A stretch of DNA of 64,000 nucleotides from Desulfobacteraceae bacterium (lineage in GTDB: Bacteria; Desulfobacterota; Desulfobacteria; Desulfobacterales; Desulfosalsimonadaceae): positions 28,839 through 92,838 of the forward strand of contig JAABUA010000002.1 of the NCBI GenBank assembly GCA_011389515.1, in the 5' to 3' direction. Of this stretch, positions 10,528 to 32,601 are shown piece after piece. The notes beneath the pieces were generated by a model that was given only the letters and a program-made list of their open reading frames with translations, did not search any database and had not been told where the DNA came from. The number at the start of each line of letters is the position of its first letter. The first letter of the stretch is position 1. A program made the translations under genes and the position numbers.

Positions 10528-11388
10528 TTACCTCCCCGCATAGCAGTACAGACAGCCATGACCGCACGGGTGTGCATCGTAGCAACCGATATCCCGGGAG
10601 ACCGTGCATTTGCACCCCTTGCCCCGCCGCTGCCCGGAATCTCCTGCAAGGGAAATCCGGCCTCCGAAGCGTTTCTGCAGGTCGCGGCCGGAAACACACC
10701 CCCCTGTCGTAGCGTTTACGCCCCGGGGCAGGTTGGCCGCAAGTTCATTTTCACAGCATGTATACAATGAAATATTCAATGATTCAAGGAGATCCGCCAT
10801 TTTATGAATGACCCGGATTTTTTTTGCCATGGGCGGATCCAGCCATGAAAATCCGGAAATCTTTTTCACCCGGCGCGCTGTTTTTGCATAGATGTCCACA
10901 AAGCTGGTAATACAGCGGTCTATGCCCAAATCCGCCATCTGCCAGGCGATTCTGGAAAAATCGCTCAGGTTGTTCCGGACGCTGTCGTCGCCGTATGTAT
11001 AGAAGCAAATCGGGTCGAAACGCCACCACAGAGACCCTGCGCCATATTGATCCACCAGTTTTTCCGCCTGCAAGATTCGCTCTTCAAGCGTTGGGAGGTT
11101 CGGTTCCAGCAGGGTCGATGAAGAATTGACGGTAAAGAGAAAGAAAAGCTCATAGCCCATTTGTTTGAGCCGGGTGCCGTAGCCGCCGTCTAAAAACCGG
11201 CTGAAATCCTTGGACCAGAAAACGATGCAGTGAACCGCATCGGGTGTGGCCGGGACCACTGAAATCCGGCGGTTGAAAGGATTTTTCACATGAAAGGCGC
11301 CGCGCTTGATCCCGTCCATGAAGCTGTCCATGTGAAACGCCGGGATATCGGTTCGCCGCGAGGCGGAAATAACGATTTTCTTTGTCAT
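10528..11388 (-). CDS. DUF1848 family protein
   Basis: N-terminus KIVISASRRTDIPAFHMDSF... and C-terminal Cys cluster GKGCKCTVSRDIGCYDAHPCGHGCLYC, as I recall for DUF1848. Confidence 0.65.
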   Translation of the reverse strand: MTKKIVISASRRTDIPAFHMDSFMDGIKRGAFHVKNPFNRRISVVPATPDAVHCIVFWSKDFSRFLDGGYGTRLKQMGYELFFLFTVNSSSTLLEPNLPTLEERILQAEKLVDQYGAGSLWWRFDPICFYTYGDDSVRNNLSDFSRIAWQMADLGIDRCITSFVDIYAKTARRVKKISGFSWLDPPMAKKIRVIHKMADLLESLNISLYTCCENELAANLPRGVNATTGGCVSGRDLQKRFGGRISLAGDSGQRRGKGCKCTVSRDIGCYDAHPCGHGCLYCYAGR

Positions 11389-14507: not shown

Positions 14508-15524
14508 ATGTATCTGGCCAGAAAATATCTGAAAAAAAAAGTCAGTTATTATCTTCGTGAGAGCCATTGGGACGGAGCCGACATAAAAAGCCGGGAAATA
14601 TGCAGTCTGGGAACAAGCCCGGAAAAGTTCATCATCTATCCCGACGATGGCATTGCGTTTTATTTCGACCCGGCACTTATCGAAACCATCGAAAATGCCG
14701 GCGTCAAGCCGGATACGGAGGAACTTGAAACCCTTTTCCGACTGTTTCTGCATCCGGATACCCGCCGTGTTATTGACAGGTTTTCCAGGCCTGCCCCCGG
14801 CAGGCGGCAGTCGTTGATGGAGCAGAAAAAGAGATGCGAAACGGAGAAATTTACCATGTTCGACAAGCGCCGAATGCACTATCTGCGTTTTGGCGAACTG
14901 GATATGCGCGGGATCGGCAATGTACCGAAAAAAATTTTCCGGAAGCTTTTGGATAAATCCCGGGATGAAATCGAGCAGCAGTTCATGGAAATGGAAAATA
15001 TTCTGGGAAACAGGGAAAAAAAGAACTACGTCTATGCTGTCTTCAACGTTGCGGGGCATTTTGAAAGTGAGATTTCTTATCGGTTTCCGCAGGCCCTTGA
15101 CCAGGAAAAAGTGGACCGGGCATTTATCGAAGAATTCTGCAGAATCCATGCGGATGCATCTTTCTGGGGGGATCTGGGCCTTTCAGAACGCGTCAGTGAG
15201 TACCTGCTTCGGTATGCATTCTGGTTTTTTGATATCGAATTTGAAGGAAGCCGTTACATGGAAGACCTGATGTGGCAGTTCAAAAAGCGCCACCACGGAT
15301 TCCGGCCGGCCCCCCGGCAGAAATCAATGCCCGTTGATGAAGCCCTTTCCGTGATGGGGATCTCCCGTTTGGACTTGTCGCAGATGACCGTAAAATCGTT
15401 GACAAAAAAGTACAGGGAGAAGGCTCATAGGTGTCATCCAGACAAGGGAGGGAATCATGAACAGTTTATACGCCTCAACCGGGCCTTTCAGACCCTTATA
15501 AAAAAGATGGGGCGAAACGCATAG
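14508..15524 (+). CDS. J-domain protein with an uncharacterised 270-aa N-terminal region
   Basis: C-terminal ...LTKKYREKAHRCHPDKGGNHEQFIRLNRAFQTL carries the HPD tripeptide of DnaJ J-domains. The N-terminal part was not recognised. Confidence 0.65.
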   Translation: MYLARKYLKKKVSYYLRESHWDGADIKSREICSLGTSPEKFIIYPDDGIAFYFDPALIETIENAGVKPDTEELETLFRLFLHPDTRRVIDRFSRPAPGRRQSLMEQKKRCETEKFTMFDKRRMHYLRFGELDMRGIGNVPKKIFRKLLDKSRDEIEQQFMEMENILGNREKKNYVYAVFNVAGHFESEISYRFPQALDQEKVDRAFIEEFCRIHADASFWGDLGLSERVSEYLLRYAFWFFDIEFEGSRYMEDLMWQFKKRHHGFRPAPRQKSMPVDEALSVMGISRLDLSQMTVKSLTKKYREKAHRCHPDKGGNHEQFIRLNRAFQTLIKKMGRNA

Positions 15525-18859: not shown

Positions 18860-19918
18860 TTATTGTCCATTCGTCCGGGCATGGAAAAATTTCTGTACGT
18901 ATTTGCCGGATATGACCTCATTGAGGTCAAAGAGGAGATCCTCCTTTAAAAAGCTTCCCCTGTAGGCAAAAAACAGGTTCCCGGATACCCCCTGGACATC
19001 CTGGAGGATCTTTTTTCTGTCCTTCCCGCTACGTTTTTTATGGTCATAAAGCCTGCAGGCCAGGGGGCGCTGATCATAAAAAGAACATTTTCCGTTCCGG
19101 TTAAAGGGGCAGAGGAGTTTTTCCGCCTGGACAACGGCACCGCGCCCGGACGCGGACCGGGCAGCAAGGGCGTCAAGCGACTGGCTGATGAGTTCCCGCC
19201 GCCTTTCCATGGGGAGCATGGTATTTATTTTCTGGGAAATGTAGACCGCCTCTGCAAAGCTCACGAAAACCTTTTCCCGGCAGCAGCGCATGTGATCGCG
19301 TCCGCAGCGTTCTGCCGGGGCGGATATTTCCGGCTCCACCCGGTCGAAAATAGTCTCCAGGTCGTCAAAAAATGGATTGAGATCCACACGGTTTTTGTTT
19401 TCAAGGCTCGGTTCGCGGGTCGTGAGGGCACACTGACAGCGGCCGTATTGCCTGAGAAGTTTCCACTGGCAGTAGGTCGATGGCTGGGATCGCAATTTTT
19501 TAAGCTTTTTCTTTACCCGCCGGGCGCTGAGTCCTTTTCGCAGAAGGTAGGCCGAAACAATGGTTCCGGTTCGCCCGATACCATGGCGGCAGTGAATCAG
19601 CACTTTTTTACCCAAGTAAATCGATTCGTCGATCCACTCCAGGGCATCATCCATGCTTTCCATTTTCGGGACTTCTTCATCTTCTATGGGAAGGTAGTAG
19701 ACGTCAAATCCGGCTTTTTGTTCAATCAAAGGCAAATCCGGAAACTCGGCGCAAAGGTTTATAATGGCATCGATGCCCGCTTTTTTGAGGCGATCGAGCT
19801 GATCATAGGACATGGGCGCATGACCGGCGGCAAGGCTTGGCGTCACCCAGCTTACGCAGTCGCCCGCGTCTCTTTTTTTAAACGGCCAGAATCTCGTCAA
19901 TTTCTCTGATAAACGCAT
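18860..19918 (-). CDS. Dual-specificity (CX5R) phosphatase fused to a YkgJ-type Cys-cluster (zinc/iron-chelating) domain
   Basis: P-loop VLIHCRHGIGRTGT in the N-terminal half. The C-terminal half has CGRDHMRCC ... LLCPFNRNGKCSFYDQRPLACRLYD, resembling the CxxCxxCC/UPF0153 family. The ATG start overlaps the upstream gene by 41 nt, so the start is uncertain. Confidence 0.7.
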   Translation of the reverse strand: MRLSEKLTRFWPFKKRDAGDCVSWVTPSLAAGHAPMSYDQLDRLKKAGIDAIINLCAEFPDLPLIEQKAGFDVYYLPIEDEEVPKMESMDDALEWIDESIYLGKKVLIHCRHGIGRTGTIVSAYLLRKGLSARRVKKKLKKLRSQPSTYCQWKLLRQYGRCQCALTTREPSLENKNRVDLNPFFDDLETIFDRVEPEISAPAERCGRDHMRCCREKVFVSFAEAVYISQKINTMLPMERRRELISQSLDALAARSASGRGAVVQAEKLLCPFNRNGKCSFYDQRPLACRLYDHKKRSGKDRKKILQDVQGVSGNLFFAYRGSFLKEDLLFDLNEVISGKYVQKFFHARTNGQ

Positions 19919-22283
19919 CGGCGTGCTTCTTGATTTTTTCCTGGTTCATGCGCATGTCCATGAGTCTGGTTTTGCCCAGAACAAATCCGATCACGGTAAG
20001 CCTTTTTCCCGTTTCTTCATCGCTTTTCCGTTTGTATTCCGCTTCGAGCAGGTCGCCGCGCACATCCGTGTCAAAGCCGTATCTTTCAAGAACGATCCGA
20101 ATGGCTTCAAGGCGCATCAGCTTCTGGGACGCTTCTGCGCCGCCCCCCTTGAAGCTGAACTGGATGTAATTTTGTTCCGCTTCCCTGCAAAGCATTGCGT
20201 CCACAACCACAAAATGGTACCCAAAACGGATAAGGGCATGCATGTAATCTTCGGCCAGCAGGCCATAACTGCTGAGAAGGGCGGACTTCTCGGGAGAAAA
20301 CACCCCGGCGCTTACTTTGTCAAACGCTTCCCAGTCAAAATGTTTCATATTCGGGTCCCATTCGATTTTCTCGTGCCCCAGTCCGGAAAACATGGCCCGA
20401 AAAGGCTTGCACGTGACGTCCTCCATGGCGACCCGGGGTCTTTCATCCCCCCTTTCGGTCAGCCCCTTTTCCAGGTTCAGCACGCGAAAGACCAGGGGAA
20501 TGTCCAGGTCGAGTACCTTGGATTGGTAAAGGCCCCTACCTTTGCGATCCGTCATGGAGAACATCTCCCGAACCCCCATTTCATGGGTGAACCGTATCAG
20601 ATCGTGCATGGATCGGCAGTTTTGGGGGACAAAACCTTCTGACTGGGCATCCGTGAGATTCAGGCTGGAAACCGTTTCCAGAATATTGTTCATTTTTTCC
20701 GTGAGCCATGTCTTTTTTTTGCCGGAAAACTGCTTCGCGGTCGAAGCCTTGCCGTCATGAACAAGCCCCCTGTTCCCGTCTATGGTGACCATTTGTCCGT
20801 TTTGAAACGTTTTCACCGCGCCGGTTACATTGATGATGACCGGAACCGAACTTTCCCGTGCAATGGTGGCAAAGTGGCTGGCAGCGCTTCCTTCCTCCGC
20901 AATTACCCCCCCAAGGATTCCCAGTGCCGAGGTCAGCTCGGGATACAGACCGCCGGCCACCACGATGCTTCCCTGGGGAATTTTGGAAGTGTCTTTGTTT
21001 GATTCCAGGGTAAATACGTTCCCGCTGGCTAGTCCCGGACTGGCCCATTCTCCTTTGGCCAGCACCGGAAGATCAACACCGGGAGCCTCGCTGTCCGGCG
21101 TAATGGCCTGCAGCGGCCGGGTCTGGAGCAGCAGGATGTTTTCCGCCGGATCCACCGTCCACTCAATGTCCTGTGGTTTTCCAAATGATTTTTCCAACGC
21201 CAGAGCAAAGTTGAAGAGGTTTTCCATGTACCGGGGGAGTCCGGAAGAAACATCAACGCCCTTTTTTTTGTCAATAAAAATTTCTTTTGCTTTCTTCTCT
21301 CCGCTGACCAGCTTGTCGCCAAGACCGGCAACAATATACACCCCCATTTCATCCTTGTCTTTGATGCCGGATGAATAGACCACCCCGCTTTCCCTGCCAT
21401 CCACCATTTCCAGAACCAAAACGGCCATGGGCAGCAGTTCGTCTGCAAGTCCTTCATGAATCCGGTATGTAATGGCGCGGGGCGTATACTTGCTGGCCAG
21501 GATCTGCTTATAGGCTTCGTATATGTCTTCGGGCCTTACGTGCAGCATGCTTTTATACTGCCCCGCAAAACTCAGGTTGCTGTCTTCACCAAAGGCGCTG
21601 GAGCGAACCGCCAGTTTGGATGCCGAAAGTGTTTTCATCTGTGCATCGATTTCTTTTTGAACGTCATCGGGAATTGTCGTTTTCAAAAAAAGTTCTCTGA
21701 TATCGTTGCATTTTTTCTCAAGGTCTTCAACGGATTCCAGGCAGATCCGGCTTAGTATTTCATTGATTTTTGGGCGAAGCCCGTTGGCAGCAACTACGGT
21801 GTTGAAGGCGCGGGTGGTGATGCAGAAGCCGCCCGGGGTTGGGAAGTCCATCTGCCGGATACGCATGAAATTCCTGGCTTTTCCGCCCAAAAGGGCTTCT
21901 TCCGGCTCCCGGCGTAAATCTTTCTCCAGACCCAGGACAAAAGGGGGCGCTGTATCCGGAGCATCCATGCGCAAGGCAAAATCAAGATAAAATGACACTT
22001 TTTTATGATAGTCCCGCAGCCCCCTGTAGCGCAGGGGGTTCAAGGCGATGAGGCTCTTGATGAGATTGCCGACGCCCCGGTCCAGTTCATGGCAAAGCCT
22101 TACCACCCGGGCATAATCGCAAAGGCGGCGCCGGTAATGGACCTCTTCGATCTCGGCCATTTTTTCCAGGCAATAGCGGTCAAGGGCCAGCAAATCTCTG
22201 AAATATTGATATTTTTTGCGAAGAAGCGTGCCCGGTGCAAATAACTGCCTGGACCAGTAGCTGAAGAGTTGGTTCATCCACAT
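19878..22283 (-). CDS. PEP-synthase/PPDK-like dikinase (ATP-grasp PEP/pyruvate-binding domain plus phosphohistidine swivel domain) with an unrecognised C-terminal domain
   Basis: LLGGKARNFMRIRQ...SSAFGEDSNLSFAGQYKS... is the PPDK_N-type nucleotide domain. GGVIAEEGSAASHFATIARESSVPVI is the swivel domain with the catalytic His. The last 290 aa or so do not resemble the PEP-utilizer TIM barrel. Confidence 0.75.
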   Translation of the reverse strand: MWMNQLFSYWSRQLFAPGTLLRKKYQYFRDLLALDRYCLEKMAEIEEVHYRRRLCDYARVVRLCHELDRGVGNLIKSLIALNPLRYRGLRDYHKKVSFYLDFALRMDAPDTAPPFVLGLEKDLRREPEEALLGGKARNFMRIRQMDFPTPGGFCITTRAFNTVVAANGLRPKINEILSRICLESVEDLEKKCNDIRELFLKTTIPDDVQKEIDAQMKTLSASKLAVRSSAFGEDSNLSFAGQYKSMLHVRPEDIYEAYKQILASKYTPRAITYRIHEGLADELLPMAVLVLEMVDGRESGVVYSSGIKDKDEMGVYIVAGLGDKLVSGEKKAKEIFIDKKKGVDVSSGLPRYMENLFNFALALEKSFGKPQDIEWTVDPAENILLLQTRPLQAITPDSEAPGVDLPVLAKGEWASPGLASGNVFTLESNKDTSKIPQGSIVVAGGLYPELTSALGILGGVIAEEGSAASHFATIARESSVPVIINVTGAVKTFQNGQMVTIDGNRGLVHDGKASTAKQFSGKKKTWLTEKMNNILETVSSLNLTDAQSEGFVPQNCRSMHDLIRFTHEMGVREMFSMTDRKGRGLYQSKVLDLDIPLVFRVLNLEKGLTERGDERPRVAMEDVTCKPFRAMFSGLGHEKIEWDPNMKHFDWEAFDKVSAGVFSPEKSALLSSYGLLAEDYMHALIRFGYHFVVVDAMLCREAEQNYIQFSFKGGGAEASQKLMRLEAIRIVLERYGFDTDVRGDLLEAEYKRKSDEETGKRLTVIGFVLGKTRLMDMRMNQEKIKKHADAFIREIDEILAV

Positions 22284-22288
22284 GATGG

Positions 22289-22660
22289 TTAGCCCGACGA
22301 TTTCCGGGATAAAACTTTTTCCACCTTCTCCTCGAGTTCATAGATGTCAATGGGCTTTACCAGATACTCATCCGCGCCAAGTTCGAGACATTTCTGGGCG
22401 GTTTCAATGGTCGGGAAACCCGTGAGCATGATCGCCTTTATTGCCGGAGATATTTTTTTCGCTTCCTCCAGGACGTCTACGCCGCTCAGTTTTTTGAGCT
22501 TGATGTCGAGGATGGCCAGGTCGATCGGCTCCTTTTTTATAAATGACAAAAAGTCCTCTTCCTCGGTAAACGGATGCACCGTGTGCCCCTTTCTTTTGAG
22601 GATTCTCTGGATCAGGATGCCTTCGTCATAAACATCATCAAGCGCGGCAATGGTTGCCAT
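22289..22660 (-). CDS. Single-domain response regulator (REC only)
   Basis: Start trimmed to ATG 22660 (GGAGGA RBS). IAALDDVYDE, LAILDIKL (acceptor Asp), IMLTG and YLVKP motifs. Its stop is 5 nt from the dikinase start. Confidence 0.8.
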   Translation of the reverse strand: MATIAALDDVYDEGILIQRILKRKGHTVHPFTEEEDFLSFIKKEPIDLAILDIKLKKLSGVDVLEEAKKISPAIKAIMLTGFPTIETAQKCLELGADEYLVKPIDIYELEEKVEKVLSRKSSG

Positions 22661-22698
22661 TTGTTTCCTCCGGTTATTTTTTTGTGGTTCCCAAGTGA

Positions 22699-22856
22699 GA
22701 CGACTTCCTAAAAAGTAACAAGATACGTAACAGATGGCTAAGTTAAAAGTTCCATATACAAGGCGTATCAATTTTTCATGCGCGAAGGCATACATGTAGT
22801 ATGTTGAGCGGATGAAAAATTGTTACAACGCAGTAGATGGTACTTTTTACGACGCC
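22699..22856. repeat. Degenerate copy (E) of the structured intergenic repeat
   Basis: Left GACGACTTCCTAAAAAGTAACAAGATACGTAAC and right GTTACAACGCAGTAGATGGTACTTTTTACGACGCC are diverged inverted versions of the GACGACTCCGTAAAAAGTCCAATATCTGCGTTAC arm. The right end overlaps the stop codon of the kinase gene. Confidence 0.6.
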
Positions 22857-24886
22857 TTCAAGGGAAGTTCAATAACAAAAACCGCACCCGGACCGAGATC
22901 CGCTGATTGGGGAAAGTCTTCAGGAAGGTATTCCCTTGGGGGTGGGCTCAGGGCGGATACGCTTCCGCCATGCTCCTGAATAATTCCGAATGAGACCGAA
23001 AGTCCCAGTCCTGTGCCTTTGCCCACCTGCTTGGTGGTAAAGAAGGGGTCGAATATCTTTCTCAAGTGTTCTTCTTTTATACCTTTGCCCGTATCGGCAA
23101 TACTCACCACTACCCGTTGCCTGTGGGCGCATAGCTTGGATTCGACATAAATTTCCCCGTTTTGGCCAATGGCGTCGGCGGCGTTGTTGAGCAGGTTGAG
23201 CCAGACCTGCTTGAGTTTTTCCCGGTCGCCGGTCAGGGGAGGGATGTTTTCATCTGCGGAGAACCGCATCTGGATATGATTTAAAAAAAAGATCTGCTCC
23301 ACCAGTTTAATGACCTCCCGGAGGGATTCATTGATATCCACGGTCTCGCTCGCGGATTCGGAATACCTGGAAAAGCTGAGAAGGTCAGCAACAATCTTGC
23401 GGCAGATCCGGGTCTGTTTTTCTATTATTTTCAGGTCATCTATTCGATTTTCATCCGTGATATCTTCCATCAGCAGCTGCGTATAACCAAGAATGATCCC
23501 CAGCGGAGTGTTGATTTCATGCGCTACGCCGCCGGCTAGTCGGCCCAGATCCTCCATTTTCTGGGATTGAATCAGCTGTTCCTGGTATTTTTTGAGTATG
23601 GAAATATCGCGTGCCGTAAGGAGAAGTCCGATAATGCTCCCATCCTGGTCATAGACCGGGATCTTGATGACATGAAGCGTTTTCTGCTCTTCATGCCGCC
23701 TGACGGTTATCTGCTTGGAAAGCGGTTGGCCGGAAAGAAGGATTTGTTTGTCTTCATGAAAATTCAGATCCGCCTGGTGTTCGGAAAAGATTTGAAAATC
23801 GGTTTTGCCGATAATGGCTTCTTCCGTGAGAGTAAGATAATCGCAAAAGGCCTTGCTTGCAGCCTGATAGGTCAGGTTCCGGTCCTGCAGGGTAATGAAG
23901 TCAGGGGTCACATCCATGATGGTTTTCAGCAGGCTCTGCTGCCTTGCAATGGTTTTTTCCCGCTGGGTGAGCTCTTCAATGTGCGTTTTCAGCGTGATGG
24001 CCATTACGTCAAAGGCTTCTGCAAGCTCCTGGACTTCGTCGCCGAAGTTGCGCCGGTAAACGGGGCAACTTCGGCATGCACCTATTTTATAGGGGTATTC
24101 CAGCCCGTTGCAGTTGGGGCACAATGTCCCCGGCAGGTGCCAGCAGCGCCTCTGGGTGTCCCCATAAGCCGGACATTCCCTGCGGTTGCAGGCCATGATG
24201 TCCCAGCAGTTTTTATCCAGCGTAACGCCTGCCTGGACATCAAGATTCCCCTCGATCATCGCTTCCGCCGATTTTCGCAGCCGGTTCAAGCGAATGGTTA
24301 CGGTATGGGCAAACCACAGGGCCAGAATGATACCCAAACCCACTATGCCCATTGTGCTGAAAAGGCTCGTCTGCCGCTGGCGGTGAATCTGGGCGTCCAT
24401 TTCCTGCCGGGACAGGCCGAGTCTTACCGTACCGAGGTTTCTTTCCCCTAAGACGACTTTGGCGCTGAAGTCATAGATAAATCCCTGTTCGGTTGACAAA
24501 AGAAGCGGCTGCTGCTCTTCTCCGCTGCGGTTGACCCGGAGAAGATCCGTGGGGAAGCCCCCGGAAAAAGAATGGGACAGAACATTATCACTGGCATCCG
24601 TCAGAAAGACATAGACCACATCGTCATATTGATTATACACATTGTCGATGAGGTTTTTCATGTGCAGGAAATCCATGGCCAGGATCGGTTCGGCCATGCG
24701 AACGGCCAGGCCGGAGGTAAGGGCCATGCCTCTTTTCTTCCCTTCCTCCAAAAGGGCTTCCGATGACATGTTGGACAGGATGACCGTTATGCCAAGCCCG
24801 CAAAACACCAGCATGACGGTAACGCCAAGGGTGATTTTGGTCTTCAGTTTGAGACCGCGGAAAACATTTGGGAAAAGTTCAGTCAA
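22847..24886 (-). CDS. Sensor histidine kinase: TM, periplasmic domain, TM, HAMP with Cys-rich insertion, PAS, HisKA, HATPase
   Basis: H-box GGVAHEINTPL; N/G boxes LLNNAADA, DTGKGI, GTGLGLS; PAS-like region; 10-Cys segment NCWDIMACNRRECPAY...RRCWHLPGTLCPNCN...ACRSCP. TTG start overlaps the upstream stop by 8 nt. Confidence 0.88.
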   Translation of the reverse strand: MTELFPNVFRGLKLKTKITLGVTVMLVFCGLGITVILSNMSSEALLEEGKKRGMALTSGLAVRMAEPILAMDFLHMKNLIDNVYNQYDDVVYVFLTDASDNVLSHSFSGGFPTDLLRVNRSGEEQQPLLLSTEQGFIYDFSAKVVLGERNLGTVRLGLSRQEMDAQIHRQRQTSLFSTMGIVGLGIILALWFAHTVTIRLNRLRKSAEAMIEGNLDVQAGVTLDKNCWDIMACNRRECPAYGDTQRRCWHLPGTLCPNCNGLEYPYKIGACRSCPVYRRNFGDEVQELAEAFDVMAITLKTHIEELTQREKTIARQQSLLKTIMDVTPDFITLQDRNLTYQAASKAFCDYLTLTEEAIIGKTDFQIFSEHQADLNFHEDKQILLSGQPLSKQITVRRHEEQKTLHVIKIPVYDQDGSIIGLLLTARDISILKKYQEQLIQSQKMEDLGRLAGGVAHEINTPLGIILGYTQLLMEDITDENRIDDLKIIEKQTRICRKIVADLLSFSRYSESASETVDINESLREVIKLVEQIFFLNHIQMRFSADENIPPLTGDREKLKQVWLNLLNNAADAIGQNGEIYVESKLCAHRQRVVVSIADTGKGIKEEHLRKIFDPFFTTKQVGKGTGLGLSVSFGIIQEHGGSVSALSPPPREYLPEDFPQSADLGPGAVFVIELPLKAS

Positions 24887-25799
24887 GGTCCAGTCCTGCT
24901 TTTTTGCTCAATTCCCGTATGGGATCGAAATCCTGGTCATCGGAAGGGACAAAACCGATAAACCGGGCAGCGTCAAGGATGTCTCTGTGCAGGGGATTGT
25001 CATGATAGTCAAGCGCAAGCATGGCCTCCCGGATTTGCCGTACTACCTCTTCCGGAAGTCTGGGGCTGTGCGCATACACCCAGCCCGGATACCACCGGGT
25101 ATTATCGATGACCTTGATCTGGTCGATATCGATTTTGTCCTCCACGACGCGAAGTGATCCTTCCCTGATGGATCCGATTTCGTGAAGTCCGGCATATACG
25201 CCCAGGATAACATTTTCCTGCCTGCCGCCGGCAAAGACCACCTCTTTGAAATCCTCCAGGTAAAGCCCGTGGTCAAAAAAATGCCCCAACGGAAAAAGGT
25301 ACCCCCCTGCTGACGAAGGATCAACCGCCACCCAGGATTTGTTCCGGCAGTCCTGGATGGTCATGACTTCCCTGTTGTCCCTGCGGGCAATGATCTGCCC
25401 CCGGAATTCAGCCCTGCCGTCCTGCTCGATGATTCTCGTCATGGCAAGAGCCCCGTATCCGTTGGCCAGCTTTACATAGACGAACGGATTGGAATAGGAG
25501 ATGTCGATCTTGCCCTGGGCGAACATATTGATATGATCATCAAAAGTGTCCGGAAAGACCTGCCTGATGGACAGCCCGGTCTGCTCGGACAGGTACTCCA
25601 CCAGCCGGTGGTGGCGCTGGAAGGACTCGGTGTGGGAATACTGGGGAAGATACGCATAGGTCAGGGCCGGGACCTGCGCCCTGAAAGAGATTTCTTCGCG
25701 TTTGTCCAATGATACCGAGACTGCATCCCCACCCTCTCCGCAGGAAAATAAAGCGAGCGGCACTAGAAACAGGATGAGGCAAATGATTTTTTGGGGCAT
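24879..25799 (-). CDS. PhnD-like periplasmic solute-binding lipoprotein (phosphonate-bd family), probable co-sensor
   Basis: Start trimmed to ATG 25799. Lipobox LALFSCG. NMFAQGKIDISYSNPFVYV, FRGQIIARRDN and DPSSAGGYLFPLGHF are PhnD-family-like. No ABC permease or ATPase gene is nearby. Confidence 0.7.
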   Translation of the reverse strand: MPQKIICLILFLVPLALFSCGEGGDAVSVSLDKREEISFRAQVPALTYAYLPQYSHTESFQRHHRLVEYLSEQTGLSIRQVFPDTFDDHINMFAQGKIDISYSNPFVYVKLANGYGALAMTRIIEQDGRAEFRGQIIARRDNREVMTIQDCRNKSWVAVDPSSAGGYLFPLGHFFDHGLYLEDFKEVVFAGGRQENVILGVYAGLHEIGSIREGSLRVVEDKIDIDQIKVIDNTRWYPGWVYAHSPRLPEEVVRQIREAMLALDYHDNPLHRDILDAARFIGFVPSDDQDFDPIRELSKKAGLDLD

Positions 25800-25812
25800 A
25801 AGGATCGTCTGG

Positions 25813-26250
25813 TTATAAGGGATTATGCTCTGCGGGTTTGTCTTCACAACCGGGTTGACCCCGTTTTTCCGCCGCTTCCCGGATCTTTTCGACAAGTTCC
25901 ATGAGCTCGCAGGGTTTCATCAGATAATCGTAGGCGCCGGCCTCGATTCCCTGTTTGGCGGCGGTGGCGGAGCCATGCCCTGTCAGCATGATCACCTCCA
26001 TTTTGGGGTCCATCCGCTTGAAAATTTTCAAGACCTCGATGCCGTCCATGTCCTCCATTTTGAGATCGAGAACGGCCACGTCAAATTCTTTCTCCCGCAT
26101 GGCCTGGAGCGCACCGGTGCCGCTGTATGTTTTGGTCGCATCGATACCTCGCCGATTCAGCCTGTTTGCCAGCACATTGACATACTCCTCTTCATCATCC
26201 ACCAGGAGCAGCCGTATTCTTTCATCGGCATCATTGTTTTTATCGTCCAT
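25813..26250 (-). CDS. Single-domain response regulator (REC only)
   Basis: Start trimmed to ATG 26250 (AAGGA RBS). LLLVDDEEEY, VAVLDLKMEDMDG, VIMLTGHG and YLMKP motifs. Confidence 0.85.
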   Translation of the reverse strand: MDDKNNDADERIRLLLVDDEEEYVNVLANRLNRRGIDATKTYSGTGALQAMREKEFDVAVLDLKMEDMDGIEVLKIFKRMDPKMEVIMLTGHGSATAAKQGIEAGAYDYLMKPCELMELVEKIREAAEKRGQPGCEDKPAEHNPL

Positions 26251-26406
26251 GAAAAGTCCTTGCATGTATGTATTGCACGCAGTTTGCGGCCGTTTCTTGC
26301 GCAGCATGTCGTTTTGTCAACAAAATATTTGTTTTTAATGCCTTTTGTCAATTGAAAACGGCTCCTTTGAAAACAGCCCCCGGCGATTTGCCGGCCCGGG
26401 CGGTTA

Positions 26407-27807
26407 TCATTGTCCGGGCCGATTCCCCCCGTTATCCACGCCGAGGTCCTTGATTAACCGGTGGAGATACTGACGCTGGATGCCTGCGGTTTCAGCGGCC
26501 TGACTGACGTTGCCGCCGCTTTTTTCGAGCAGCGCCGTGATATATGCCCGGTAGAATTGTTTACGCATCTCCTCCCGCGCTTCTTTAAAAGGCAGGGCGA
26601 ATAGGTCAGGGTCATGGGGCAGGTATTCCCGAAAGCCGACGGTTTCTTCAAGGCAAAGGTCCTGCTTTTCCAGGCGGTCTTCCTGGCAGAAAATCACGCC
26701 CCTTTCGATAATGTTTTCCAATTCGCGAACGTTGCCCGTGTACTGATGTCGCTGCAGCGCATCCATGGCTTCCGGGGAAATCTCCCGGATATTTTTTTTG
26801 TTGATGCGGCTGTATTTTGCAAGAAAATGATAGCTTAAAAGAGGAATGTCTCCGCTTCTTTCCTGTAAGCCTGGCAGGTCAATCCGGATAACGTTGAGAC
26901 GATAATACAGGTCTTCCCGGAAGCGCCTTTCCCGGATGGCATCGGTCAGGTCCTGGTTGGTTGCGGCAATGAAGCGCAGGTCCGCGGTCCTGGTAGTCAC
27001 GCTTCCGACGGGTTTGTATTCCCCATACTGCAGAAGGCGAAGCAGTCTCGTCTGCAAACGGGGATTCAATTCGCCGATTTCATCCAGAAAAAGGGTTCCC
27101 TTGTCGGCTTCTTCCACAACGCCTTTCGCATCTTTATAAGCGCCGGTAAACGCTCCTTTCATATGCCCGAAAAGTTCACTTTCCATGATTTCGGGGGGCA
27201 AGGCGGCGCAGTTGAGCGTGATCATTTTCCCTTCATGCCGGAGGCTGTGCCGGTGGATTGCTTTTGCAACCAGTTCTTTTCCCGTGCCGCTCGCCCCTGT
27301 GATCAGAACCGTTCCCATGGTGGGCGCCACCTGGCGGATACGCGCAATGATATGCTGCATCAAGGGAGAATCCGTAATGATATCTGCAAAATTTTCGGAA
27401 TCGGCCATGGCGGTGCGCAGGCGGCGATTTTCATCTAAAAGGGTATGCCATTGCAACGCTTTTTCCATGGTCACGAGAATCCGTTCCCGCCGGAACGGCT
27501 TGCTGATATAATCGAATGCCCCTTTCCGCGTGGACTCCACGGCGGTGTCGATCGTTGCGTATGCCGTCATAATAACCACCGGAATATCGGGATTGATCGC
27601 CTTTACTCGCTCAAGAACCTGTATTCCATTCATTTTCGGCATTTTGAGATCGGTGATCACCAGGTCGAAAGGACGGGCTTCAAAATCTTCCATGGCTGAA
27701 AACGGATCGTTATGGACCGTGATTTCGTGATCGTTTCCCTCGCTGATAATGCGTTTGAGCAGGCTCAGCATGTCCTTTTCATCATCGATGATCAGAATTT
27801 TCGACAT
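26407..27807 (-). CDS. Sigma-54-dependent response regulator (NtrC family: REC, AAA+, Fis-type HTH)
   Basis: ILIIDDEKD, LVITDLKMPKMNG; Walker A GASGTGKELVA; GAFTGA motif (HMKGAFTGA); C-terminal GNVSQAAETAGIQRQYLHRLIK. Confidence 0.93.
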   Translation of the reverse strand: MSKILIIDDEKDMLSLLKRIISEGNDHEITVHNDPFSAMEDFEARPFDLVITDLKMPKMNGIQVLERVKAINPDIPVVIMTAYATIDTAVESTRKGAFDYISKPFRRERILVTMEKALQWHTLLDENRRLRTAMADSENFADIITDSPLMQHIIARIRQVAPTMGTVLITGASGTGKELVAKAIHRHSLRHEGKMITLNCAALPPEIMESELFGHMKGAFTGAYKDAKGVVEEADKGTLFLDEIGELNPRLQTRLLRLLQYGEYKPVGSVTTRTADLRFIAATNQDLTDAIRERRFREDLYYRLNVIRIDLPGLQERSGDIPLLSYHFLAKYSRINKKNIREISPEAMDALQRHQYTGNVRELENIIERGVIFCQEDRLEKQDLCLEETVGFREYLPHDPDLFALPFKEAREEMRKQFYRAYITALLEKSGGNVSQAAETAGIQRQYLHRLIKDLGVDNGGNRPGQ

Positions 27808-29980
27808 TGCTTTTCCTCTCCGTGGCCGGCTTCAGCCGAATGATAAATGTGGTGCCATGTCTGTCCGATGTTATATCCGTATTCGATTCGCATTCGATTG
27901 TTCCTCCGTATCGGCTGATAATACCGTAGCTGACGAAAAGGCCAAGTCCGGTGCCCTCCCCCTCCGGCTTGGTGGTATAAAAAGGATCGAAAATGCGGTT
28001 GATATCTTTTCCGTCAATGCCCGTGCCGGTATCTGATAGAGCGATGACCACCCTTTGGTTCGACTCATCCATGCGTCCGGATATAACCAGCATTCCGCCG
28101 TCGGGCATGGCGGATATGGCATTGTTGATGATGTTCAGAAAAACCTGCTGAAACTGCCTGAAATCTCCGATAACCGCCGGAAGGGGATCGGGCAGGTGCA
28201 TGTCCAGTTCAATATCATTCATATCAAGGGTATGTTTGACGATTTTCACCACTTCCCGGATACATTTTTTGATATCGGCGGTTTCAGACGTTTCTTCCCC
28301 GTGGCGGGCAAAGCTGAGCAGGTTTTCCACGATCTGCTTGCAGTGAAGTCCCTGACGCTCAATGGTTTTCAGGTCTTCGTAGTCCTGGCCTTCCGGGTCG
28401 GTGCTGCGGATCAGGAGATCTGAAAATCCGAGTATCACCCCAAGCGGATTGTTGATTTCGTGTGCCACGCCTGCCGCCAGGGTTCCCAGGGAGGCAAGTT
28501 TTTCAGCATTAATCAGCCGGCTTTCCAGGTTTTTCTGCTCCGTAATATCCCTTGCGATGCACAAAACAGCGCTGACATCCCCTTTTTTGTCCTTTAGTGG
28601 AATGAAATTGGCGCTGATCCATGTGCGTCCGACCGTTTTTGAGATTTCAACAATATCGCTTACACTTTTTTTCTCCAAAAACACCCGTCTTGCGCGTTCG
28701 AATATTTTTTCCGCAGTCTGCTCCGGAAACAGTGATGAAAGCGGCATATCTATGAAAATGTCCGGTTCTTTCCCGAAAAAACCGGCGGTAAACGGGTTGA
28801 GAGATTGAAAATGGCCTTTTCTGCTTATGGTGAAAATAAAATCTTCCGCACTCTCCACAAGCGATCGGTACTTTTCTTCGGATCGCCTCAGGGCATGCGT
28901 CCGGTCGTTCACCTCGATTTCGAGAGAACGGGACCAGCGTTTTTCAAGAAACAACACGGCACAAGCTGCTGAAACGATGGCAATGAGCAGAAGCACCTGC
29001 AGCAAAAGCTGGCGATGATTGGCATTTTTGACCAACCCCTCGATTTCTGATGTCGGTGCGACCACCGCAATGGACCATGTTCGGGGAGAATGCCCCTGCA
29101 GGCGGATGGGCGTGTAGGCGATCAGCTTCTTCAGCTTGCCGGTTACGCCCCTGTGCCATCCCGATTCATAAGACCCGGTGCCCTCCAGCCCCCGGAGCAT
29201 TTTTTCCTGCTGGATGAAGTTGATGGTATAAAAGGAGAGTCCCGGGTCTTCCTCCCTTCTGACATTGAAGGCGTCCCTGCCAATGAATTCGGTCTTCGGG
29301 TGAAACAGAAAGCGACCGTCTTCGCTTATTATCCAGGCATATCCGGTTTTGCCGGATTGGATCCCCTTTGCGAACGGGCTTAAAAACCATGACACATTGA
29401 TGTCAAAAATAATGAGTCCTTTCTGCGGACCCGGCAGAAGGGCTGCCATGAAAAGGGTAAGGCGGGACGAATCGTTAACAGGACTGGAAAACCATACCGT
29501 ATCCGAAGACAGTTCTTCTGGATCGGGCAAAAACGAAAACTCCTCCTTCGAAGATGTCCAGTAATCGTTATATATGTAGTGGTAGGCTTTTTGATTTTTT
29601 GCATCAGCATCAATGATCAGTATTTTCCGCACCCCGCTCTCAACCACCCGGGCAAAATTTTTCTGCATGACCGGCTGCATCGCGTCAGGGTCGAATATGT
29701 ACGGGGTGCTTCGGTCTGATTGCGGTCCATCAGGTATGATTTCCCGGCTGATAAGCTTCAGTTCTTTTTCAAGAAACCCCAATTCTCTTTCAACGAGCAA
29801 GGCGACATTCCGTGCAATGACCAGCTGCTCCTCATTAAATTGCCGGCTGACGATGTTTCGAATTTCTGCGGTATGCCACAGGCCGAGCGCAATCGATGCC
29901 AGGATGAACAGGGACGCAACGGATACGGTGATAAAAATCGCGCTGCGTTCCATCTTTGTTCGGCGAAAAGGGCTCTGCAT
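27782..29980 (-). CDS. Sensor histidine kinase (TM, Cache-like periplasmic domain, TM, PAS, HisKA, HATPase)
   Basis: H-box [11 protein letters not shown]; INNAISAM, DTGTGI, GTGLGLF. A periplasmic region of about 300 aa has a Cache-like segment (GYAWIISEDGRFLFHP). Overlaps the NtrC-type gene by 26 nt. Confidence 0.9.
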   Translation of the reverse strand: MQSPFRRTKMERSAIFITVSVASLFILASIALGLWHTAEIRNIVSRQFNEEQLVIARNVALLVERELGFLEKELKLISREIIPDGPQSDRSTPYIFDPDAMQPVMQKNFARVVESGVRKILIIDADAKNQKAYHYIYNDYWTSSKEEFSFLPDPEELSSDTVWFSSPVNDSSRLTLFMAALLPGPQKGLIIFDINVSWFLSPFAKGIQSGKTGYAWIISEDGRFLFHPKTEFIGRDAFNVRREEDPGLSFYTINFIQQEKMLRGLEGTGSYESGWHRGVTGKLKKLIAYTPIRLQGHSPRTWSIAVVAPTSEIEGLVKNANHRQLLLQVLLLIAIVSAACAVLFLEKRWSRSLEIEVNDRTHALRRSEEKYRSLVESAEDFIFTISRKGHFQSLNPFTAGFFGKEPDIFIDMPLSSLFPEQTAEKIFERARRVFLEKKSVSDIVEISKTVGRTWISANFIPLKDKKGDVSAVLCIARDITEQKNLESRLINAEKLASLGTLAAGVAHEINNPLGVILGFSDLLIRSTDPEGQDYEDLKTIERQGLHCKQIVENLLSFARHGEETSETADIKKCIREVVKIVKHTLDMNDIELDMHLPDPLPAVIGDFRQFQQVFLNIINNAISAMPDGGMLVISGRMDESNQRVVIALSDTGTGIDGKDINRIFDPFYTTKPEGEGTGLGLFVSYGIISRYGGTIECESNTDITSDRHGTTFIIRLKPATERKSNVENSDHR

Positions 29981-30234
29981 ACGTCGTGCTCCCTGTGTCC
30001 ATCTTTCTTATGTGGTCATGGTTTTGGTAACCCGCCTGTTCCTTTCAATACGCTTTTTTCTGCCGGGGATCTATAAAAAAAGATGACAGCCCATTGCTTT
30101 TGTCAACCAGGATATTACACCAGTGTCCACTTCCGGAGGACACTTTTTCTGCAAGCCTTTTTCCCGCGTTTGGTTTTTTATTATAACTATTTGAAATTCA
30201 ATATAATAAATTATTTATCAAATGCCATCGGATA

Positions 30235-30249
30235 TGGCACGACCTTTGA
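30235..30249 (+). promoter_or_regulatory. Sigma-54 (-24/-12) promoter candidate
   Basis: TGGCACG-ACCT-TTGA: a perfect -24 element with correct spacing, but -12 reads TTGA rather than TTGC. It lies 58 nt upstream of the ATG at 30307. Confidence 0.45.
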
Positions 30250-30306
30250 AATGATAGATAGCGCATTCCCGTACAAACCGAAAAAGAGAAAAGGGAGGCG
30301 AAATAT

Positions 30307-30837
30307 ATGATGAAAATTCCAGGTCGAAAAATCATCAAGCACTTTTTAAATGAAAGGAAACCGGGCATGGATGCGGAAAAAGAGATGAAATTGATGCTCG
30401 TCGATGATGAAGAGCGCTTTTTATATGCAATGGAGAAATTGCTGACCAAAAAGGGCTATGACATCCAGACAGCATCCAGCGGGGAACAATGTCTCGATAT
30501 TCTATCAAAAAATCGCATCCATGTGGTCATACTCGATGTCAAAATGCCGGGGTTGGATGGATTGGAGACACTCAGAAGGATAAAACAGCAGTATCCGCTG
30601 GTCGAGGTAATTCTGTTGACCGGTCACGGCACGGTGGAATCTGCTGTGGATGGTCTGAAATGCGGTGCCTCTGATTTTTTAATGAAACCGATCAGCGCTT
30701 CTGATCTGCTGGACCGGGTAAAAGATGCTTTTGCCCGCAGTCGCGCGGTGGAAGCCAAGATTGATGAGGCACGCTCCCGCAGATTCATGCAGCAGTCTCC
30801 CCGTGACATCTTGAATGATGCGGATGCAAAGGAATAA
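30307..30837 (+). CDS. Single-domain response regulator (REC plus a charged helical tail), module 1
   Basis: GGGAGG RBS 8 nt before the ATG. LMLVDDEERF, VVILDVKMPGLDG, VILLTGHG and FLMKP motifs. An alternative start at 30367 is possible. Confidence 0.85.
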   Translation: MMKIPGRKIIKHFLNERKPGMDAEKEMKLMLVDDEERFLYAMEKLLTKKGYDIQTASSGEQCLDILSKNRIHVVILDVKMPGLDGLETLRRIKQQYPLVEVILLTGHGTVESAVDGLKCGASDFLMKPISASDLLDRVKDAFARSRAVEAKIDEARSRRFMQQSPRDILNDADAKE

Positions 30838-30843
30838 GGCTTG

Positions 30844-32601
30844 ATGGAGCCACGCAAAAGTGCGGATAGGGAAAACATGAACAATACCGATGCCCGGATG
30901 CGTAAAACTGTTCTTTTCAGTATGATCCTCGTCCCGGTGATTCCGTTTGCGCTGGTGATTTTGGTTGGGTATTTTTACTCGGCGTTTACCATTGAAGCAA
31001 GAACGGTCGAGTCTCTGCAGCGGATTGTGAATGACCACAGGCAGATGATCGATACGTTTCTCCGGGAGCGCCGAACGAACCTGGAATTCGTCATTAACAC
31101 CAATTCTTTCGAATCGCTCAGCCGACCGCACAATCTGGCCTTTGTGTACGATAACCTTCGGGGAATATCCAACGCTTTCGTGGATTTGGGCGTCTTTAAC
31201 GAAGAGGGTCTACATGTCGCATATCATGGTCCGCACCAGTTGAGTGGTAAAATATACAAGGACGAACCCTGGTTCATGGAGGTTATTCAAAACGGCGTGC
31301 ATATAAGCGACGTGTTTCTTGGCTTCAGGGGATATCCGCACTTCATTATTGCGGTTGCCAGAAAGGAAAACGGGAAGATATGGGTTCTTCGGGCGACCAT
31401 CGATACCTATATATTCAACGATATGGTCGGACGCATTCGCATCGGCAAAAGCGGTGAAGCATATATCATCAACAAAGACGGCATTTTTCAGACGGCGCCC
31501 TTTGCCGGTGAATTTCTGCTTCAGCAAGATCCGAACCGGGCGCTGTATCTGAGGCGTCACGAAGGCATTAAAACGTTTATTGGCAATCAGAATTTTATCG
31601 GGATCTCCCTGCCATACATGCCAGGGGATATTTACCTGTATGCCACAACCTGGCTGGAAGAAAAACCATGGTTGATGGTGGTGCGCCAGGAAAAACAAGA
31701 CGCCTTTCGAAACCTCCGTTTTGCAATGTATTTAATCGCGGTCATCGCGATTGCGGGTCTGGCAGCGATTATCGGTCTTGCCTTCCAGCAGACCGGCCGG
31801 GTGGTGCGCCGGATCAAGCGGATGGATGCGGAGAAAAAAGGCCTTGAAAATCAGTTGATCCGGGCGACGCGCCTTGCCGAACTGGGGCAGATGGCCGCCG
31901 GTTTCGCCCATGAAATCAACAACCCCCTTCAGGTTATCCGCAGTGAACAGGCACTTATGGAATTTATCATAACAGAGATAAAGGAAATGCAAGAAAATGC
32001 AGATGAATCATCCTTTGCAGAGCTGGAAGATTCGATTCACCAGATGACCATCCAGATAAACCGGTGCGCCCATATTACACAGGCGATATTGAATTTTGGC
32101 CGGTATACCGAGCCGGACATGGAAAATATTCGACTCAGTGATTTTGTTGGCGAGATAATCGTCATGATATCCCGCAAAGCCGCCGTCCATGGCATCTCTG
32201 TAAACCAGCGCATCGCGGATGACACACCGTTGATATACGGAGACAAGGGGCAGTTGCAGCAGGTTCTGCTCAACCTGCTGAATAATGCCATCGATGCCGT
32301 TATTGAAAAACACGGATCAAAGGAGGGTGAAGTCCTGATCTATGCCGGAAGGACCGAAGACGGTCATGTCGAGGTTTCGGTGCAGGATAACGGCGCAGGT
32401 ATCAGCGCGGAAAATTTTGACAAAATCTTCACTCCCTTTTTCACCACCAAGCCGCCGGGCAAGGGCACAGGGCTTGGGTTGTCGGTCTGCTACGGAATCG
32501 TGGAAAACCTTGGCGGCAAAATGTCTGTGAGCAGCCATGAAGATGTCGGCACGACGTTCACCATATGGTTTCCAGCGGCGGAAAACAAGAGCGCCCAATA
32601 A
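30844..32601 (+). CDS. Sensor histidine kinase with a Cache/PDC-like periplasmic domain, module 1
   Basis: Two TM segments flank about 240 aa (..[34 protein letters not shown]..). H-box [11 protein letters not shown]; [21 protein letters not shown]. There is no HAMP or PAS between TM2 and HisKA. Confidence 0.9.

Follow-up and report, generated by a model that had tools for sequence, protein, structure and literature searches.

A dikinase-like phosphotransferase with a presumed new acceptor domain, encoded with a CX5R phosphatase and two-component genes in Desulfobacterota

Introduction

The closest described counterpart of the genes considered here is the "nitrate cluster" of Desulfovibrio, which encodes a TauE-family permease (DVU0251), a conserved hypothetical protein (DVU0250), a PtxB-like protein (DVU0249), a kinase (DVU0248), a REC protein (DVU0247), a protein resembling pyruvate,phosphate dikinase (PPDK; DVU0246) and a dual-specificity phosphatase (DSP; DVU0245) (PMC4001038). 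The present analysis concerns a co-oriented block of five minus-strand genes in a 64,000-nt stretch of DNA from a Desulfobacteraceae bacterium (assembly GCA_011389515.1, contig JAABUA010000002.1, positions 28,839 to 92,838 of the forward strand), referred to below as the window. The block encodes a PhnD-like binding protein, a histidine kinase, a REC-only protein, an 801-residue dikinase-like protein and a 352-residue phosphatase. The last two genes form a pair that recurs across Desulfobacterota, and the dikinase ends in a presumed acceptor-binding domain for which neither described families nor solved structures offer a detectable relative.

What is known of the Desulfovibrio cluster comes from genetics. 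In D. vulgaris itself DVU0248 is a kinase pseudogene, and the equivalents of the cluster genes in strain G20 are Dde_0598 and Dde_0600-0605, within a cluster that ranges over Dde_0597-0605 (PMC4001038). Transposon mutants of all cluster genes but the phosphatase resist 100-150 mM nitrate, not nitrite, and the D. vulgaris phosphatase mutant remains nitrate-sensitive, with a fitness of -6.04 (PMC4001038). G20 cluster mutants are also mildly sick on thiosulfate, and non-specific entry of nitrate via a leaky thiosulfate transporter was proposed by the authors (PMC4001038). That study (Korte et al. 2014, Front Microbiol 5:153; PMC4001038) reports phenotypes without biochemistry or domain analysis. 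In the literature searched it is the only mention of the locus tags; neither Trotter 2023 nor Carlson 2021 takes up the cluster. Elsewhere, proteomics shows that thiosulfate disproportionation by Dissulfuribacter thermophilus raises the levels of DITHS69_1988, a TauE-associated membrane protein and TauE, with log2 fold changes of 3.4, 1.8 and 1.6, respectively (PMC13490349). DITHS69_1988, annotated "PEP synthase", may be read as a member of the same dikinase family from this annotation and its position beside the TauE pair.

The cluster itself is not new, having been named and phenotyped; what is new is the presumed acceptor domain. Among sulfur-cycling Nitrospirota, a sister form of the module is common. 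Nitrate resistance of sulfate reducers is relevant to the control of oil-field souring, and the cluster is also tied to thiosulfate use.

Layout of the locus

The five genes and their domains are arranged as follows.

18860..19918, minus strand: 352-aa phosphatase with a DSP-type CX5R domain and a Cys-cluster domain (open reading frame, Pfam, homologues)
19421..19858, minus strand: DSP catalytic domain, aa 21-166 (Pfam and homologue alignment)
19589-19591, minus strand: codon of the catalytic Cys110 of the phosphatase
19019..19321, minus strand: Cys-cluster domain of the phosphatase, aa ~200-300 (sub-cut-off PF03692 match and invariant Cys)
19878..22283, minus strand: 801-aa dikinase-like phosphotransferase of the phosphoenolpyruvate synthase (PPS) superfamily, DVU0246 family (open reading frame, homologues, AlphaFold, Foldseek)
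21972..22283, minus strand: N-terminal domain of the dikinase, aa 1-104 (AlphaFold model, conserved motifs)
21084..21908, minus strand: ATP-grasp domain (PPDK_N) of the dikinase, aa ~126-400 (Pfam, invariant columns, PDB profile)
20766..20981, minus strand: swivelling phosphohistidine domain of the dikinase, aa 435-506 (Pfam, invariant residues)
20874-20876, minus strand: codon of His470 of the dikinase
19881..20723, minus strand: C-terminal domain of the dikinase, aa 521-801 (no family; AlphaFold model, conservation)
22289..22660, minus strand: stand-alone REC protein, 123 aa (Pfam Response_reg, orthologues)
22847..24886, minus strand: sensor histidine kinase, 679 aa (Pfam, orthologues)
24879..25895, minus strand: PhnD/PtxB-like periplasmic binding protein (Pfam Phosphonate-bd, conserved 5' of the kinase)

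A preliminary description, drawn from the letters of this DNA, had reported a linked minus-strand set formed by the REC protein, the 801-aa protein and the 352-aa protein. These genes are all present as described, and the set proves to number five rather than three. The junctions between them are tight. The REC stop codon lies 5 nt from the dikinase ATG, and the phosphatase ATG overlaps the dikinase stop by 41 nt, as had been noted; an alternative in-frame TTG start at 19900 would shorten this overlap to 23 nt and fits the homologue N-termini slightly better. At full length the REC open reading frame covers 22289..22795 on the minus strand. Its true start is likely the MATIAAL at 22660, since the resulting 123 aa fits the homologue lengths of 120-125 aa. 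Similarly, the longest open reading frame of the binding protein runs 83 nt into that of an upstream REC protein (25813..26307), and translation probably begins internally, at the lipoprotein-type signal MPQKIICLILFLVPLALFSCG near 25800.

A dikinase core with an unrelated C-terminal domain

The catalytic core of the 801-aa protein belongs to a well-described type. Pfam detects PPDK_N (PF01326; E=8.6e-64, 216 bits) and the mobile domain of PEP-utilizers (PF00391; E=6.2e-17). The swivel motif GSAASHFATIARE contains His470, which is invariant in 31 aligned sequences together with G465, S466, A468, A472, A475, R476 and E477. The ATP-grasp motifs (GGKA, RSSA..ED..SFAGQ, QDIEW and LQ.RP) are intact, and the nucleotide-site motifs are invariant in the 31 homologues. 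This bears out the PPDK/PPS-type nucleotide domain and intact phosphohistidine motif first read from the sequence. Full-length homologues occur throughout Desulfobacterota at 36-91% identity, under the database name "pyruvate, water dikinase". For an AlphaFold model of the full-length protein (pLDDT 84.2), the top Foldseek matches are PPS (2ols), rifampin phosphotransferase (RPH; 5hv1) and PPDK (1kbl).

Resemblance to these enzymes is confined to the core. When a profile of the 31 full-length homologues is compared with the PDB, PPS, RPH and PPDK chains align only at profile positions 112-556. The best NCBIfam matches are PEP synthase models (NF005057/TIGR01418), which reach 229.8 bits against a cut-off of 598 and 222.6 against 739.75, and the match is limited to the first two domains of the dikinase. 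Models of non-pyruvate PPS-like enzymes give 152-154 bits against cut-offs of 999-1350, and that of rifamycin-inactivating phosphotransferase (NF041857) gives 152 against 999.

The last 281 residues have no Pfam match at E<=10, including to the PEP-utilizers_C barrel (PF02896), and no match in the PDB by sequence profile. An AlphaFold model of this region from a 20-sequence alignment (pLDDT 78.7, pTM 0.71) is of the alpha+beta type with antiparallel sheets and is not a (beta/alpha)8 barrel. Compared with the PDB by Foldseek, the model finds no credible match (best E=0.011, TM <=0.25), and PPS, PPDK, Enzyme I and RPH entries are missing from its 50 best matches. The view that the C-terminal ~290 aa are not the PEP/pyruvate TIM barrel is confirmed by Pfam, PDB profile, AlphaFold and Foldseek alike; the Foldseek comparison suggested in the preliminary description as a check for a divergent PEP-utilizer barrel found none. 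A resemblance of the sequence SFKGGGA to the PPS motif "SIGSNDL" was considered and dropped; the barrel searches by Pfam, PDB profiles and AlphaFold with Foldseek were all negative.

The domain is nevertheless strongly conserved. Invariant positions are H560, D561, R564, H567, E568, E573, D655, Y673, Y680, Y689, H690 and D695, followed by N705, G713-G715 (the GGG of an F(K/A)GGG loop), R724 and D776. A profile of the domain, searched against 1.84 billion representatives, retrieves 1376 clusters, nearly all of proteins of 800-870 aa in which it is C-terminal. It is the presumed acceptor-binding domain. At the other end of the protein, the N-terminal domain is modelled by AlphaFold as three long helices (2-50, 57-86 and 89-104); it has no Pfam match even at E<=10, and its motifs are conserved family-wide, Nitrospirota subfamily included.

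That the locus might simply hold an ordinary divergent PEP synthase next to an unrelated phosphatase is effectively refuted. The database name and the PEP synthase models among the best NCBIfam matches would favour such an enzyme; the 229.8 bits against 598, the restriction of this match to the two N-terminal domains, a PEP-utilizers_C barrel undetectable by sequence or by fold, and the conserved adjacency and gene fusions described below all stand against it. Judged by sequence and model, the 801-aa protein is a PPS-superfamily phosphotransferase and not a PEP synthase.

The phosphatase partner

The 352-aa protein begins with a CX5R phosphatase domain. The Pfam models PTP-SAK, Tc-R-P and DSPc match at E=1e-18 to 7e-16, all above their gathering scores; the DSP models (PF00782 / PF22784) give 58.6-68 bits against cut-offs of 27-33.5. 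Across 22 homologues the P-loop HCRHGIGRTGT is invariant at H109, C110, R111 and G113-T119, with Cys110 as catalytic residue. Asp80 in PIEDEEVP, at least 90% conserved in the homologue alignment, is the probable general acid, and by its motifs the enzyme appears catalytically complete. Its best PDB matches (E down to 4e-21) are minimal protein tyrosine phosphatases (PTPs), namely Tk-PTP (5z5b) and SsoPTP (2i6i). Among the 60 best PDB sequence matches, small protein PTPs of archaea and bacteria, DUSPs and PRLs come nearest, and no glucan phosphatase (SEX4, LSF2 or laforin) is present.

The C-terminal half had been assigned to the YkgJ type alongside a HCRHGIGRTG phosphatase domain. The latter holds; of the former, what can be said is that a conserved Cys domain is present, as the CxxCxxCC model (PF03692) scores 20.5-21.7 bits against a cut-off of 23. 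Six cysteines (C205, C212, C213, C270, C278 and C288) are invariant in this half across the 22 homologues, in the pattern C-x6-CC ... CP-x7-C-x9-C, from which the second Cys of the canonical CxxCxxCC motif is missing. The domain is probably a metal or Fe-S site. Cys56, in the DSP domain, is likewise invariant. Because the homologues span 92-100% of the length of the protein, the fusion of DSP and Cys cluster is conserved as well as widespread.

Conservation of the module in Desulfobacterota

A genome scan with the C-terminal domain, taking one genome per species, found it in at least 580 species-level genomes. Where enough downstream sequence is available (74 loci), a DSP orthologue lies directly downstream of the dikinase on the same strand in 67, with gaps of -22 to +367 nt, and two proteins (P0290 and P0333) are single-chain dikinase-DSP fusions. 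The pairing is not due to chance. This settles a check proposed in the preliminary description, which had asked whether the gene pair is conserved across genomes.

The link of the pair to a two-component system, also claimed there, finds similar confirmation in the recurrence of REC and kinase orthologues near the pair. Tallied over 46 loci with at least 5 kb of flank, a REC orthologue of 57-80% identity accompanies the pair in 37 and a kinase orthologue occurs in 27; 9 of 44 loci retain REC and DSP without a cognate kinase nearby. In Desulfobacula (L007), dikinase and DSP form one operon and binding protein, kinase and REC another, the two being convergent, so the gene set survives rearrangement. 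The conserved set encodes no DNA-binding output.

The REC protein (PF00072, Response_reg; E=4.6e-20) has a complete pocket in its sequence, with D8/D9, Asp52, Thr80 and Lys102. In the kinase, Pfam recognises a faint periplasmic sCache_3_2 domain, HAMP, PAS, HisKA and HATPase_c, with a Cys-rich insert between HAMP and PAS. This insert (aa 227-274; 24065..24208, minus strand) has 8 invariant Cys (CW..C..CPAY..CW..C..C..C..C) in four orthologues at 43-66% identity, and is probably a cytoplasmic metal, Fe-S or redox-sensing module. The binding protein (Phosphonate-bd; E=5.9e-57) is conserved upstream of the kinase in relatives and is the presumed ligand sensor for it; its weak NCBIfam matches are to TtrS, in the domain that senses tetrathionate, and to a putative selenate binding protein.

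Genes for anion transport and reduction are frequent neighbours. In 23 of the 44 well-flanked Desulfobacterota loci, a TauE-family permease and a membrane protein of ~200 aa lie within 10 kb of the dikinase. The permeases are 57-93% identical among these loci, and a Fer4_11 ferredoxin-like gene is often alongside. A divergent operon at locus L052 contains a gene for a PhsA-like molybdoenzyme (595 bits, where the PhsA thiosulfate reductase model has a cut-off of 694), then genes for DmsB-like and GltD-like proteins; since the match begins at model position 41, the export-signal region of this PhsA-like protein appears to be missing. Genes for PhsA-like, DmsB-like and GltD-like proteins adjoin the module in L052, L090 and L091.

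A reduced arrangement is seen in four loci (L021, L024, L026 and L058; ~6500..10830 in each), in which the dikinase is accompanied by TauE and the ~200-aa membrane protein, and a DSP, REC or kinase gene is absent within 10 kb of it. The L024 dikinase is split in two open reading frames, which may reflect a frameshift or a long-read assembly error.

A sister subfamily with different phosphatases

A second group of dikinases, of ~1060 aa, is abundant in Nitrospirota, including Thermodesulfovibrio and Dissulfurispiraceae. These proteins are 32% identical to the window protein and have the N-terminal bundle, the catalytic core and the invariants of the C-terminal domain in common with it. They carry one extra domain, resembling a ConA-like / 3-keto-disaccharide-hydrolase-like lectin. 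Their operons run in the order TauE, small TauE, PhsA-like protein, ferredoxins, GltD-like protein, phosphatase and dikinase.

The partner encoded directly upstream of the dikinase in Nitrospirota (L088, L090 and L091) is a member of the low-molecular-weight PTP (LMW-PTP) family, and in at least five proteins (P0383, P0489, P0492, P0494 and P0505) an LMW-PTP is fused N-terminally to the dikinase. These partners match models of thioredoxin-type arsenate reductase best, at 85-101 bits against cut-offs of 174-215. In L090 (7529..12212) a bona fide thioredoxin reductase (358 bits, above cut-off) comes after the dikinase, and in L088 (787..1491) the ArsC-like partner is fused to a DF-family selenoprotein domain. 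One further protein, P0431 (1290 aa), known from a single metagenome contig of 4.6 kb, bears a C-terminal PP2C/SpoIIE domain (aa 1064-1289). Since three unrelated phosphatase folds are thus joined to one dikinase family, there is strong evidence that removal or processing of phosphate is part of the function of this family.

Pairing of a PPS-like dikinase with a DSP, and the lectin-like domain of the Nitrospirota proteins, could suggest a bacterial glucan or polymer dikinase served by a phosphoglucan-type DSP, by analogy with glucan,water dikinase (GWD) and SEX4 or laforin. We consider this highly improbable. Pfam detects no carbohydrate-binding module (CBM) of the CBM20, CBM45 or CBM48 type in either window protein, the domain order is unlike that of GWD, and the DSP is nearer to protein PTPs, the glucan phosphatases being absent from its best PDB relatives as described above. 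The neighbouring genes encode a permease, a molybdenum reductase and two-component proteins and not glycogen enzymes, and the published phenotypes concern nitrate and thiosulfate (PMC4001038). Of the preliminary suggestion that the dikinase and DSP run a reversible phosphorylation cycle under two-component control, the outline is supported and the glucan analogy attached to it is not.

A proposed signalling-to-enzyme module

It is quite possible, and is tentatively proposed here, that the five genes constitute one signalling-to-enzyme module, in which an ATP-driven phosphorylation cycle would be the output of a two-component system and would govern the uptake or reduction of thiosulfate-type anions. 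On sensing an oxyanion, for which thiosulfate or one of its relatives among the sulfur oxyanions is the most plausible candidate, the periplasmic PhnD-like protein would signal to the histidine kinase, which would phosphorylate the stand-alone REC protein. The latter would switch the dikinase by direct contact, possibly via the N-terminal helical bundle; we infer this contact from the translational coupling of the two and from the lack of a DNA-binding domain in REC. The ATP-grasp domain would then phosphorylate the swivelling His470, from which the phosphoryl group would move to an acceptor bound by the C-terminal domain. Its removal from the acceptor would fall to the CX5R phosphatase, whose Cys cluster would couple this activity to redox or metal state. 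Such a cycle would govern, or join, the TauE-family permease and the cytoplasmic PhsA-like reductase system found beside the module in many relatives.

Published genetics assigns REC and dikinase to one pathway, the D. vulgaris phosphatase mutant having the opposite phenotype (PMC4001038). As mutants of REC, dikinase and TauE behave alike, the cluster offers no candidate other than the dikinase to relay the REC signal to TauE-dependent nitrate sensitivity. The acceptor in the proposed cycle may be a protein, and the dikinase part of a regulatory phospho-switch. This is favoured, only narrowly, over a small molecule, because the DSP is nearest to protein PTPs, because PP2C is a protein-phosphatase class, and because a cost of ATP to AMP for each substrate looks unaffordable for thiosulfate disproportionation (about -22 kJ/mol) by our own estimate. 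The preference is narrow on account of the precedent of the superfamily, the enzyme-like C-terminal domain, the redox character of the partners and the lack of a conserved protein target.

Several observations weigh against the proposed module. To our knowledge, all characterised ATP-grasp dikinases act on small molecules or polymers and not on proteins. The invariant polar residues and GGG loop of the C-terminal domain, kept in Nitrospirota, suggest an enzyme-like site. The partner "phosphatases" carry redox modules, either an ArsC-type protein beside TrxB or a Cys cluster, and these features hint at thiol chemistry instead of plain hydrolysis. No two-component genes occur in the Nitrospirota operons examined. 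The TauE proteins of those operons are 24-25% identical to their Desulfobacterota counterparts and have no cytoplasmic loop, and the membrane partner is absent; there is accordingly no obvious protein target shared by both groups. Either the ~200-aa membrane protein or the TauE cytoplasmic loop was considered as a common acceptor and rejected, neither being conserved in Nitrospirota. The window has no TauE or PhsA-like gene of its own: tblastn searches of its 64 kb to E=10 did not find TauE, the membrane partner or the Fer4 genes (best E for TauE and partner, 0.029). In G20, the fitness of the phosphatase mutant (+2.08) agrees in sign with that of the kinase mutants, unlike in D. vulgaris (PMC4001038). 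Orthology of the window genes to DVU0245-0249, on which use of these phenotypes depends, is inferred from gene order, domain content and one Nitratidesulfovibrio locus (L064, of the same genus as the D. vulgaris locus), which has orthologues of the window REC, dikinase and DSP. The literature search returned no paper on the enzymology of the dikinase family.

Many of these points would be explained by a metabolic role, which is possible if somewhat unlikely. Here the dikinase would phosphorylate a small molecule, possibly an imported sulfur oxyanion or sulfonate, and the CX5R partner would be the next enzyme of the pathway: it might dephosphorylate a later phospho-intermediate, or it might be a thiol reductase or transferase in the style of ArsC or phosphoadenosine phosphosulfate reductase, re-reduced via the Cys cluster or thioredoxin. 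REC would only tune flux, and nitrate toxicity would reflect futile consumption of ATP on an analogue. The precedents in the superfamily are for small-molecule acceptors, to go by the NCBIfam names PigC, RedH, Rph and PEP synthase, and the enzyme-like residues of the C-terminal domain are common to two phyla. The tight Nitrospirota operons combine dikinase, TauE, PhsA-like reductase, ferredoxin and GltD-like protein without two-component genes, and the partner there is ArsC-like, beside a thioredoxin reductase in L090 and fused to a selenoprotein domain in L088; the window DSP has its six invariant Cys and Cys56. The four reduced loci with nothing but TauE, membrane protein and dikinase, and the strong induction of DITHS69_1988 (PMC13490349), point in the same direction. 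Against this, the scores to ArsC models fall below their cut-offs, PP2C, to which one family member is fused, belongs to the protein phosphatases and has no thiol chemistry, and the window DSP is closest to protein PTPs. The estimated ATP-to-AMP cost is hard to square with a low-energy disproportionation, a phosphorylated sulfur oxyanion intermediate of this kind has no known example, and translational coupling of a stand-alone REC protein to a catabolic enzyme would be unusual.

In a more specific form of the idea, dikinase and CX5R partner would catalyse consecutive steps of a hitherto undescribed ATP-dependent activation and reduction of a sulfur or related oxyanion and would not constitute a kinase-phosphatase switch; this we regard as doubtful. 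The dikinase may phosphorylate the imported anion, a thiol enzyme of PTP fold may attack the activated species in the manner of ArsC or phosphoadenosine phosphosulfate reductase, and the product may pass to the cytoplasmic PhsA-like reductase. The thiol enzyme would presumably be the DSP with its Fe-S-like Cys cluster in Desulfobacterota, and in Nitrospirota the ArsC-like protein recycled by the adjacent thioredoxin reductase.

Phosphate might also take another route, with the phosphohistidine of the dikinase donating to the REC Asp as an input independent of the kinase, and the CX5R enzyme resetting dikinase or REC. Of all the partners REC is the best conserved, and its gene is translationally coupled to that of the dikinase; the 9 loci in which REC and DSP persist without a cognate kinase fit such a scheme, as does D. 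vulgaris, where mutation of REC has a strong effect even though the kinase gene is a pseudogene (PMC4001038). Transfer from His to Asp is also established chemistry. This route is improbable all the same. It is not known to have a precedent, acyl phosphates need no dedicated Cys phosphatase, and the residues of the C-terminal domain are kept where no REC adjoins the dikinase, in the Nitrospirota subfamily and in four Desulfobacterota loci.

If the proposed signalling-to-enzyme module is correct, it would be a two-component system that acts without a transcription factor, its output being an ATP-grasp/phosphohistidine enzyme with a previously unrecognised acceptor domain. Depending on the identity of the acceptor, this would be a two-component-controlled protein kinase of the dikinase type, the first of its kind, or a new means of oxyanion activation, and either outcome would explain how anion uptake is gated in these organisms.

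Surroundings in the window

Upstream of the block, the region 25813..46778 is unusually dense in genes for signalling and anion transport.

25813..26307, minus strand: an extra REC protein
26407..27807: sigma-54 activator with a REC domain
27782..29980, 30841..32601, 36377..38155 and 42039..43820: four dCache histidine kinases
30307..30837: REC protein
35292..36218: REC-CBS protein
32828..34684, 38303..40348 and 45306..46778: three DASS transporters

In sulfate reducers, proteins of the DASS family are candidates for sulfate transport. The one at 38303..40348 (plus strand) is a 681-aa protein in which an N-terminal receiver (aa 15-125) is fused directly to a DASS-family (Na_sulph_symp) anion transporter; from its domains, it is a predicted transporter with built-in two-component input. 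A REC-kinase-DASS operon is divergent from the sigma-54 activator gene, and a sigma-54-like -24/-12 element (TGGCAC-N5-TTTGAA, one mismatch; 30235..30250, plus strand) lies ~60 nt 5' of the operon; the number of such matches in the window does not exceed chance. The search of the window for sigma-54 promoters gave only two sites with one mismatch, not more than chance would give, and none before the cluster. Further afield, a 396-aa open reading frame (8111..9301, minus strand) has no Pfam family, and a 338-aa protein (14508..15524, plus strand) has a C-terminal DnaJ (J) domain only, its N-terminal 290 aa being without a family.

Comparison with known systems

The nitrate cluster is the nearest relative of the window block, with the same order and domains: binding protein, PAS/HAMP kinase, REC, PPDK-like protein and DSP. 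Gene lengths agree too, the D. vulgaris REC and DSP genes being 360 bp and 1110 bp. The two differ in that counterparts of the DVU0251 TauE and DVU0250 membrane protein are missing from the 64-kb window, which instead has extra two-component genes and DASS transporters upstream.

Among phosphatases, the window DSP domain is most like Tk-PTP (5z5b) and SsoPTP (2i6i), from which the window protein differs in its additional conserved six-Cys domain and in being always encoded with the dikinase. The Nitrospirota partner recalls thioredoxin-coupled ArsC, from which its scores below the ArsC cut-offs set it apart.

GWD and SEX4, LSF2 or laforin offer another example of a dikinase functionally paired with a DSP-fold phosphatase. 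GWD has CBM45 or CBM20 modules and a His domain that precedes a C-terminal nucleotide domain. In the window dikinase, by contrast, no CBM is detected and the order is nucleotide domain, His domain and C-terminal domain, and its type of context is sulfur-oxyanion transport and reduction with a two-component system.

PpsA and PPDK, the closest solved structures, have the ATP-grasp domain and swivelling phosphohistidine domain in the same order as the window dikinase, which differs from them in its alpha+beta C-terminal domain in place of a TIM barrel and in its added N-terminal three-helix domain. RPH, PigC/RedH and phenylphosphate synthase are comparable in a different respect, namely re-use of the PPS core with a different acceptor-binding domain. 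In RPH this acceptor domain lies between the ATP-grasp domain and a C-terminal His domain, whereas the His domain of the window dikinase is central.

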